Below are positions 52,861 to 53,035 of a stretch of DNA of 64,000 nucleotides, piece after piece (position 1 is the first letter of the stretch; each line of letters starts with the position of its first letter). This stretch comes from Bacteroidia bacterium (GTDB taxonomy: Bacteria; Bacteroidota; Bacteroidia; UBA7662): the NCBI GenBank assembly GCA_046291695.1, contig JBKBSO010000010.1, forward strand, positions 40,319 through 104,318. Direction: 5' to 3'. The translations under genes were made by a program, and so were the position numbers. Below the pieces are notes generated by a model. That model did no database searches and was not told the DNA's origin. It worked only from the letters and a program-made list of their open reading frames with translations.

Positions 52861-53035
52861 ATAACGGGAGTACTCGCTGACGCTCGCTGGGGAACGCTCG
52901 CTGTTGCTCGCTGGGGAGTACTCGCTTCGCTCGCTGGCGCTCGCTGGGGAACGCTCGCTGTGCTCGCTGGGGAACGCTCGCTGGCGCTCGCTGGGGAACG
53001 CTCGCTGGCGCTCGTGGGGAGTACTGGCTGGTAAA
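52861..53035. repeat. GC-rich CTCGCTGG-family repeat block, locus 5, the largest (about 7 x 24-nt GGGGAACGCTCGCTGGCGCTCGCTGG units)
   Basis: Read directly from the sequence. The called ORF 52840..53112, with PASASERS-type repeats, is an artifact of this block. Confidence 0.7.

Follow-up and report, generated by a model that had tools for sequence, protein, structure and literature searches.

A 64-kb stretch of the genome of a Bacteroidia bacterium (GenBank assembly GCA_046291695.1, contig JBKBSO010000010.1, positions 40,319 to 104,318 of the forward strand), referred to here as the window and analysed over its full 64,000 nucleotides, carries five arrays of a short, GC-rich tandem repeat that we designate L1 to L5. 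All five lie between genes, are built on the same compound plan in which a longer and a shorter subunit alternate, and are non-coding; their presence is specific to a lineage and falls between conserved flanks, and they diverge fast. On balance we favour the view that the five loci probably represent a lineage-specific, dispersed family of non-coding compound minisatellites, neutral or selfish in nature and changing by slippage. The family is previously undescribed and is a fairly ordinary kind of fast-evolving non-coding repeat. It is not a family of repetitive extragenic palindromes (REPs) or of the bacterial interspersed mosaic elements (BIMEs) that contain them, and the arrays are not terminators, Chi-like motifs, clustered regularly interspaced short palindromic repeats (CRISPR) or coding sequence.

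Architecture and intergenic placement of the arrays

Parsed on the CTCGCTGG strand, all five arrays resolve into a long subunit of 14 nt (consensus GGGA[GA][TC][AG]CTCGCT[GT], of the GGGA-GWRC-TCGCTG type) that alternates with a short subunit of 8-10 nt (consensus nnGCTCG(C)TG), and both subunits end in the same 9-nt core, CGCTCGCTG. Together they form a compound unit of 22-24 nt, for which lengths of 22, 23 and 24 nt are all seen, and the units follow one another head-to-tail and contiguously; with no spacers between units at any of the five loci, the layout is not that of CRISPR. An initial annotation of the window had described tandem units of 10-14 nt ending in CTCGCTGG, a description that is correct and that is sharpened here to the alternation of 14-nt and 8-10-nt subunits within a 22-24-nt compound. 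The same annotation had placed the five loci, in the right orientations, within a few bases of the boundaries given in Table 1, and had rightly singled out L5 as the largest, with about 7 units of 24 nt.

Copy number across the five arrays ranges from 2.2 to 7.3 compound units, and L2, L3 and L5 share an identical starting variant, GAGTACTCGCT, that is, (G)GGAGTACTCGCT. Tandem Repeats Finder (TRF) calls arrays at L1, L3, L4 and L5, and the centre of L5 is nearly homogeneous by this measure (TRF period 24, 4.0 copies, 92% matches). The degenerate portions of the family are the edges of the arrays together with the small arrays L2 and L4, and the order of subunits is irregular in places, as in a short-short doublet at 52925-52947 in L5. 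GC content is 62-71% in the arrays against 49.6% in the window, and the five arrays total 500 nt, which comes to 0.78% of the window, or 4.8% if only its intergenic part is counted. The long subunit also holds an 8-nt palindrome of the form GA-N4-TC, which is perfect in 8 of 15 long subunits; the perfect palindromes come in three versions (GAGTACTC, GAGCGCTC and GAACGTTC), and most of the imperfect ones are off at a single asymmetric position.

Table 1. Coordinates of the arrays and associated features. Positions are those of the window, except in the last three rows, where they are those of the named metagenome contig.
Feature	Position	Strand	Remarks
Array L1	8062..8172	+	~4.6 compound units, 62% GC
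Array L2	30906..30958	+	~2.2 compound units, 70% GC; convergent spacer
Array L3	32598..32690	-	~3.9 compound units, 66% GC
Array L4	35845..35912	-	~2.8 compound units, 71% GC; most degenerate
Array L5	52861..53035	+	175 nt, ~7.3 compound units, 67% GC; largest, most homogeneous
Spurious open reading frame, 90 aa	52840..53112	-	reads through array L5
Leader module, copy 1	8186..8235	+	TTTGAAC heptamers, then CTGAACTTAGCAGTCGT; ends in ATG (+CA) of NTP-transferase gene
Leader module, copy 2	32311..32368	-	ends in ATG (+CA) of DtxR-family gene
Leader module, partial copy	32420-32433		
Gemmatimonadota soil-metagenome array	L129 459-667		20-22/24 identical to a window unit
Gemmatimonadota soil-metagenome array	L129 1579-1840		20-22/24 identical to a window unit
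Gemmatimonadota soil-metagenome array	L275 4255-4494		20-22/24 identical to a window unit

Counting both strands, the window has 17 copies of the motif CTCGCTGG, roughly ten times the 1.76 that dinucleotide-preserving shuffles lead one to expect; none of 100 shuffles yields as many, and 15 of these 17 copies fall within the five arrays. The remaining two are single copies inside open reading frames (ORFs), at 9492 (-) and 15702 (+), which corresponds to the chance rate. A Chi-like motif is a single oriented motif of 5-8 nt that is over-represented genome-wide, genes included, and the loose analogy with Chi offered in the initial annotation does not survive a count of 2 copies outside the arrays in 64 kb against 1.76 expected. 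Allowing up to 2 mismatches, the 12-mer GCTCGCTGGGGA is matched 21 times in the window where 5.2 matches are expected; a pattern specific to the compound architecture gives 5 matches against 0 expected; and a density scan with ten family hexamers over the whole window and both strands returns exactly the five loci and none further. By a curated gene set the intergenic fraction of the window is 16.2%, and the location of all five arrays within it, already proposed as strict in the initial annotation, has a probability of P = 1.1e-4. An array sits in 5 of the 20 spacers that are 100 nt or longer, and occurrences of the repeat are not as frequent inside genes as between them.

Pfam searches bear out the identities first given to the flanking genes, whose products are SAICAR synthetase, a nucleotidyl transferase, GpsA, a thioesterase, a DtxR/FeoA repressor, HupE, an M1 peptidase, a tetratricopeptide repeat (TPR) protein, LemA and a pyridine-nucleotide oxidoreductase. 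L1 starts 3 nt past the TAG stop codon of purC (8056-8058) and precedes the NTP-transferase gene, and L2 opens with the subunit TAGTACTCGCTT, which overlaps the gpsA stop codon (TAG, 30904-30906); that codon sits where the GAG of the first GAGTACTC subunit of the array would be. L3 runs opposite to L1, L2 and L5; it occupies the spacer between the divergent DtxR-family and HupE genes, upstream of the DtxR-family gene and co-oriented with it. L5 lies between the divergent genes for LemA and the pyridine-nucleotide oxidoreductase, co-oriented with the latter and 141 nt upstream of its ATG, such that L3 and L5 are both positioned 141-280 nt upstream of the ATG of a co-oriented gene. L4 is located 100 nt 3' of the M1 peptidase stop codon and is antisense to both of its neighbours. 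Orientation relative to the flanking genes, checked at all five loci, is inconsistent: where the context is unidirectional, which is so for three arrays, two run sense to transcription and one runs antisense. We note that GAAGAGG/GAAGCGG heptamer repeats at 35722-35767 and 35817-35836 span the M1 peptidase stop codon, and that a perfect hairpin, AACCGCAATGAATTGCGGTT, lies between these repeats and L4.

The array consensus is without a stop codon in any of the six frames, and it is because the array has six open frames that a Ser/Ala/Pro-rich ORF of 90 amino acids is called through L5, as the initial annotation recognized in setting this ORF aside as a spurious by-product of the repeats. The arrays are not coding, because subunit lengths of 8, 9, 10, 13 and 14 nt break the reading frame. 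A chimera of six array translations found no scorable homologue among 5.8 billion proteins, for which compositional filtering is the probable cause. A coding low-complexity repeat is rejected in view of the frame-shifting subunits, the six open frames, the absence of the array from the orthologous spacers of relatives and the protein search without a homologue.

The L5 spacer in related lineages

To judge from its proteins the host is a member of the Cytophagales, since nearby genes encode Por_Secre_tail/CHU_C sorting domains, and the named proteins most similar to the oxidoreductase come from Spirosoma (~75%) and a 'Cytophagales bacterium'. A cyanobacterial origin, with the arrays as short tandemly repeated repetitive (STRR) sequences, was considered and rejected; HIP1 occurs at the chance rate, and the flanking proteins point to the Cytophagales. 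Public contigs with identical proteins come from a single Logan run, SRR31360864, in which a contig overlaps the window for 4,505 nt with 0 mismatches. No further array is present in the ~9 kb that the contig from this run covers beyond the left edge of the window, and for the gene at the right edge no public contig was found.

Orthologues of the oxidoreductase at 84-87% identity sit in the same lemA/oxidoreductase neighbourhood, with conserved spacer ends and no array between them. In a sister lineage whose oxidoreductase is 93% identical (run SRR20069379), a contig starts in array sequence (ggCTCGCTGGGGAGCGCactccgtGCTGGGGAtggctgg...) at the orthologous position, and this array is degenerate and strongly diverged, though the downstream flank aligns well with the window. 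The L5 array was thus gained later than the divergence of the 84-87% relatives and earlier than that of the sister lineage, being absent from the former and present in the latter, and its own divergence has far outpaced that of its flanks. Another short tandem repeat, GTAAACGTTT / GTAAACGTTTGTACCCATTT with the core palindrome AAACGTTT, is found in the 87% relatives upstream of the orthologous oxidoreductase gene (L025 9785-9836 and L033 1-30); one short-read contig (L033) starts inside this repeat and another (L032) starts just downstream of it.

Logan short-read contigs end inside the L5 array both in the same strain (L024 1-100) and in the sister lineage (L031 1-42), and the arrays therefore fragment assemblies; they may be under-represented in public metagenome contigs. 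The practical consequences are that short-read assemblies break at the arrays, as seen in two independent runs, and that spurious ORFs are called through them. The arrays would make good strain-typing markers for the lineage as variable-number tandem repeats (VNTRs).

A degenerate 20-nt family pattern gave 23 single matches and no array in 185,579 species-representative genomes (GTDB), where we estimate that ~17 matches are expected, and a pattern for the compound architecture gave 0 matches in 241 million JGI metagenome records. Array-specific strings were not found in the searchable literature, and a sequence-based literature search returned only unrelated primer matches. These data test only weakly whether the family is restricted to the window: it is present at the orthologous site in the sister lineage, sampled in another run, and no copy occurs in the 9 kb to the left, in the GTDB representatives or in the JGI metagenomes.

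Probable slippage and alternative origins of the family

We infer that slippage is the engine of array expansion. With the core recurring every 10 and 14 nt, replication slippage or unequal recombination could misalign the repeats by 10, 14 or 24 nt, and misalignment in these registers would cause arrays to grow, shrink and scramble the order of their subunits quickly. Such registers would explain why copy number varies, why centres are homogeneous and edges degenerate, why subunits are scrambled in order and why divergence is rapid. Arrays would persist only where they are harmless, which is to say between genes, often right behind a stop codon or ahead of a start codon, and any effects on neighbouring genes, such as altered spacing of divergent promoters or longer untranslated regions (UTRs), would be incidental. 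Neutral or selfish DNA is the most likely description of the arrays.

No flank, terminal inverted repeat (TIR) or target duplication points to a transposase as the carrier of seed copies into new spacers. Several observations weigh against the favoured account. Same-species data are identical where they can be compared (4,505 nt, and ~90 nt of the L5 array), and so copy-number polymorphism between strains, by which minisatellites are typically recognised, is not observed directly. The visible genome consists of the 64-kb window, or 73 kb including the public contig on its left side, and dispersal throughout the genome is extrapolated from the five loci within it. Pure neutrality explains neither the maintenance of the long-subunit palindrome in three versions, with 8 of 15 copies perfect, nor the trailing of two arrays by one 50-nt leader module (see below). 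A third point that pure neutrality does not explain is that three arrays begin at or no more than 3 nt from a TAG, these being L1 (8056-8061), L2 (30904-30906) and an array on the Gemmatimonadota metagenome contig L129 (1576-1578).

An alternative that we regard as unlikely, though with a precedent in the same phylum, is that the arrays are the internal repeats of a non-autonomous MITE (miniature inverted-repeat transposable element) of the BrickBuilt/PgRS kind, moved in trans by an insertion sequence (IS) transposase encoded elsewhere, with ends that are short or eroded. BrickBuilt has a unit of 23 nt, is strictly intergenic and species-specific, and lacks leader and tail in 3 of its 19 copies; the defined 5' start (G)GGAGTACTCGCT common to L2, L3 and L5, the patchy, lineage-specific distribution among relatives, and the orientation of L2 and L3, which face each other around a 1.64-kb segment of two genes, are all consistent with such an element. 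Its ends, however, do not appear. When the arrays were masked and the five spacers compared all-against-all on both strands there was no common leader or tail, and the sole shared block was the 50-nt module present at two loci. The arrays are not framed by inverted repeats, and the junction sequences differ at each locus with no consistent target-site duplication. The one candidate for a 3' flank motif, GGTGGGTTGCGA, was rejected, as it is exact only at L1, has 2-mismatch variants scattered in genes, and at L5 is orthologous spacer sequence shared with the sister lineage. Nor did Pfam searches of 39 predicted proteins identify a Y1_Tnp or REP-associated tyrosine transposase (RAYT) domain, another transposase, an integrase or a reverse transcriptase in the window, so that the RAYT/IS200-like transposase for which the initial annotation proposed a search elsewhere in the genome was not found there; the window holds mostly housekeeping genes, together with a PIN-domain ORF, a Fic-domain gene and several ORFs without a Pfam match.

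We note that the segment bracketed by the facing arrays L2 and L3 encodes a FlK-like thioesterase and the DtxR/FeoA repressor. The arrangement could be a composite-transposon-like layout or a coincidence.

The two full copies of the 50-nt module are 96% identical over 50 nt (8186-8235 on the + strand against 32360-32311 on the - strand). Each consists of TTTGAAC heptamers followed by [C/G]TGAACTTAGCAGTCGT and ending in ATGCA, at which point the similarity stops, and they provide the starts of two unrelated genes, encoding the NTP-transferase and the DtxR-family repressor. Both copies lie 3' of an array in identical order and orientation, 14-16 nt from L1 and ~229 nt from L3. The module looks like a portable 5' leader or promoter; we treat it as a separate repeat, and its membership in the array element is uncertain.

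We think it rather improbable that the arrays are functional, cis-acting protein-binding sites. Under such a model the palindrome (GAGTACTC, GAGCGCTC, GAACGTTC) or the CGCTCGCTG core would be the putative site of a dimeric protein, either a regulator or a nucleoid-associated protein, and tandem copies would form a cooperative or insulating nucleoprotein block between transcription units. The occurrence of perfect palindromes in three versions, with the remainder mostly one asymmetric position off, resembles maintained symmetry; yet when distinct types are counted only 3 of 5 are palindromic (P of about 0.1, an estimate), and the units are not independent. Three of the five arrays are upstream of and co-oriented with a gene start, two of them between divergent genes, two arrays are coupled to the leader module, and a similar 14+10 array is found in a Gemmatimonadota lineage. 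Against this, the array is absent, and thus dispensable, in the 84-87% relatives with unchanged gene order at L5, it degenerates quickly in the sister lineage, the neighbouring genes are without a common function, and no candidate binding protein is encoded nearby.

A role at the level of RNA, as a terminator, a stabiliser of mRNA 3' ends or a structured UTR, seems to us very improbable. The location of L1, L2 and L4 downstream of genes would suit such a role, as would the folding of the CCAGCGAG strand of L5 as RNA (z = -5.1 and -4.5 against shuffles) and that of L3 on both strands (DNA z = -4.2/-3.4), which occurs by pairing of two GAGTACTC copies. The complementary CTCGCTGG strand of L5 folds no better than shuffles (DNA z = +0.9, RNA z = +0.7). 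It is L1, L2 and L4, however, that follow the 3' ends of genes, and the folding of these three is indistinguishable from shuffles on both strands, as DNA or RNA; transcripts of L1 and L2 would moreover carry the non-folding CUCGCUGG strand. DNA folding scores against dinucleotide shuffles are z = +0.8/-0.4 for L1, -0.3/-1.3 for L4 and +1.6/+0.5 for L5, and by this measure L3 alone folds. Where folding is present it consists of pairing between two palindromic 8-mers one unit apart, and hairpin potential is not a property of the family; the strong fold of the CCAGCGAG-strand RNA of L5 was considered as a family trait and rejected, since it is not repeated at L1, L2 or L4 and is a by-product of these 8-mers. 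No intrinsic-terminator-like site (a stem-loop followed by a T-run) overlaps the arrays checked (L1, L2, L4 and L5), which argues against the terminator role suggested in the initial annotation, and orientation with respect to transcription is inconsistent. An Rfam search of the whole window at the gathering threshold returned only a tRNA, and one of L5 at E <= 1 returned no match.

A true REP/BIME family, whose mobility would depend on a RAYT (Y1/IS200-like) transposase from another part of the genome, is in our estimation hardly credible. REPs are imperfect palindromes, BIMEs hold REPs in alternating orientation, and a RAYT gene accompanies them. The window family resembles those of Enterobacteria and Pseudomonas in being short, GC-rich, extragenic, multi-copy and sometimes clustered, and in some of its arrays two palindromic 8-mers spaced by one unit can pair into a stem. 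Its units, in contrast, are non-palindromic overall and are direct tandem copies in a single orientation per locus, never alternating; for L1, L4 and L5 the folding of single-stranded DNA equals or exceeds the shuffle mean, and there is no RAYT in the window. The initial comparison with REP/BIME elements was thus apt in recognizing a dispersed, intergenic, non-coding repeat and fails on structure, the arrays being head-to-tail only, without folding as a family trait and without a RAYT in the window.

Known repeat families and look-alike arrays

Dispersed tandem-repeat families are known from few bacterial groups (the mycobacterial interspersed repetitive units or MIRU, STRR, and BrickBuilt/PgRS), and for most of these the manner of spread is unresolved. 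The minisatellite family described here is a clean new example in environmental Cytophagales, in whose compound unit the slippage registers are plain to see and which has no transposon-like ends, and it adds one more case in which the seeding of new sites by such repeats can be studied.

The best analogue is BrickBuilt of Porphyromonas gingivalis, a direct tandem repeat of ~23 nt with imperfect copies and no spacers, which occupies 19 loci that are always intergenic, with 1 to ~23 copies per locus, in one species and its sister, and which gives rise to spurious ORF calls in annotation pipelines (Klein et al. 2015, PMC4596501). BrickBuilt further possesses a leader of up to 285 nt, a tail of up to 318 nt and IS5-type TIRs, with 3 of 19 copies lacking both segments, and it contains promoter elements (PMC4596501). 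Shared with the window family are the phylum Bacteroidota, spacerless direct repeats of ~23 nt, imperfect copies, a dispersed intergenic distribution and the spurious ORFs. The unit of BrickBuilt is simple, whereas that of the window is a 14+10 compound, and there is no sequence similarity between them. The promoter consensus of the Bacteroidota includes TTTG-type motifs; the window arrays are GC-rich and without such motifs, and differ in this from BrickBuilt with its promoter elements. A leader, a tail and IS5-type TIRs were looked for at the window arrays and not found, and for this reason the family, although it behaves like the minisatellite part of BrickBuilt, is not a member of it.

MIRU, the repeats of mycobacteria that are reportedly treated in Supply et al. 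1997, have units that touch or run into the stop and start codons of adjacent genes and are co-oriented with transcription. They are minisatellites located between the genes of operons, with fast copy-number change (PMC3635867). The window family is likewise one of dispersed intergenic minisatellites, and L1 and L2 lie at stop codons as MIRU do; the differences are a unit of 22-24 nt in place of ~40-100 bp, another phylum, no sequence similarity, and a mixed orientation of the arrays, with L4 antisense and L3 and L5 between divergent genes. STRR are simple heptamers, arranged head-to-tail at many intergenic sites and confined to heterocystous cyanobacteria, and are said to go back to Mazel et al. 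1990. The term is in use for cyanobacterial short tandemly repeated repetitive sequences (PMC2670836, PMC7593598). A short unit repeated head-to-tail at many intergenic sites of one lineage is common to STRR and the window family, and TTTGAAC heptamer arrays adjoin two of the window loci; the unit itself differs, being a compound of 22-24 nt and not a heptamer, the host belongs by its proteins to the Cytophagales, and HIP1 is not enriched in the window.

A loose scan of metagenome and viral collections for three CTCGCTG cores at short spacing gave, among the matches listed, nearly all unrelated repeats of period 9, 12 or 15, and only one contig that is family-like. This contig, L129 (64% GC, Gemmatimonadota), has [TTGAGCGCTCGCTG][GCGCTCGCTG] repeated ~3.8 times in a 14+10 = 24-nt architecture; the unit is 22/24 identical to a window unit and aligns with L5 over 67 nt at 88%. 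The array starts at a gene's TAG stop codon, an inverted array with a period of 24 nt comes after it, and a second locus on the same contig has units 20/24 identical to a window unit. The Gemmatimonadota arrays are in the public records Ga0126377_10217680 and ERZ924811 k127_919065. A relative with a flanking protein 89% identical is without the array after the stop codon and has the other locus conserved but diverged, and a 70% relative has no array in 10.7 kb. This patchy pattern mirrors that in the Cytophagales.

We nevertheless consider it doubtful that the Gemmatimonadota and Cytophagales arrays are related. The best 24-mer identity over 286 scan-selected clusters, among the matches listed, forms a continuous tail up to 22/24 with no clear outlier, and simple 10-mer arrays of nCGCTCGCTG occur in several organisms; because 22/24 does not stand out and such simple arrays recur, the link is unproven and may be a chance resemblance. 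We are similarly sceptical of the broader notion that 14+10 repeats with the core (G/A)CGCTCGCTG constitute a cross-phylum class of intergenic arrays. Were the arrays of the two phyla related, this would point to an unrecognised cross-phylum mechanism, and if the class exists, one of two things would follow: that a non-autonomous element whose ends are not recognisable moves horizontally, or that some conserved enzyme or DNA-binding protein generates or selects the sequence. The 50-nt leader ending in ATG would then be a portable expression signal travelling along.

A link to a hairpin element of Chloroflexota/Anaerolineae was also considered and rejected, as that element shares only ~22 nt selected by the search pattern, its signature ends are absent from the window, and the 23 genome matches agree with the ~17 estimated for chance; the resemblance is a coincidence. 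The element is multi-copy, with nested inverted repeats in the arrangement GTCAyTGCGAG ... GAAGCAgTCTCC-loop-GGAGATTGCTTC-gctcgctggggaacgctcg-CTCGCAATGAC. It was found in L002, L004, L006, L008, L009, L013, L017, L018, L020, L022 and L023, and gave no Rfam match at the five loci searched (L002, L006, L008, L018 and L020).

Two other features of the window were observed. A tandem array with an 83-nt unit is present in two blocks, at 18158-18323 and 19834-20450, with 2 and ~7 copies respectively, 84-87% matches and internal CCGCGGT/CTGCGGT heptamers. The blocks flank the PIN-domain ORF (18792-19196, -), and a 217-aa ORF that runs through the array (19804-20457) has only a weak Pfam match, itself probably spurious; Rfam gives no match there. 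A tRNA gene at 56423-56496 is followed by a segment of low GC content (39% against 50%), which carries a Fic/DOC-family gene (56706-57785, -) and may be a small integrated island.

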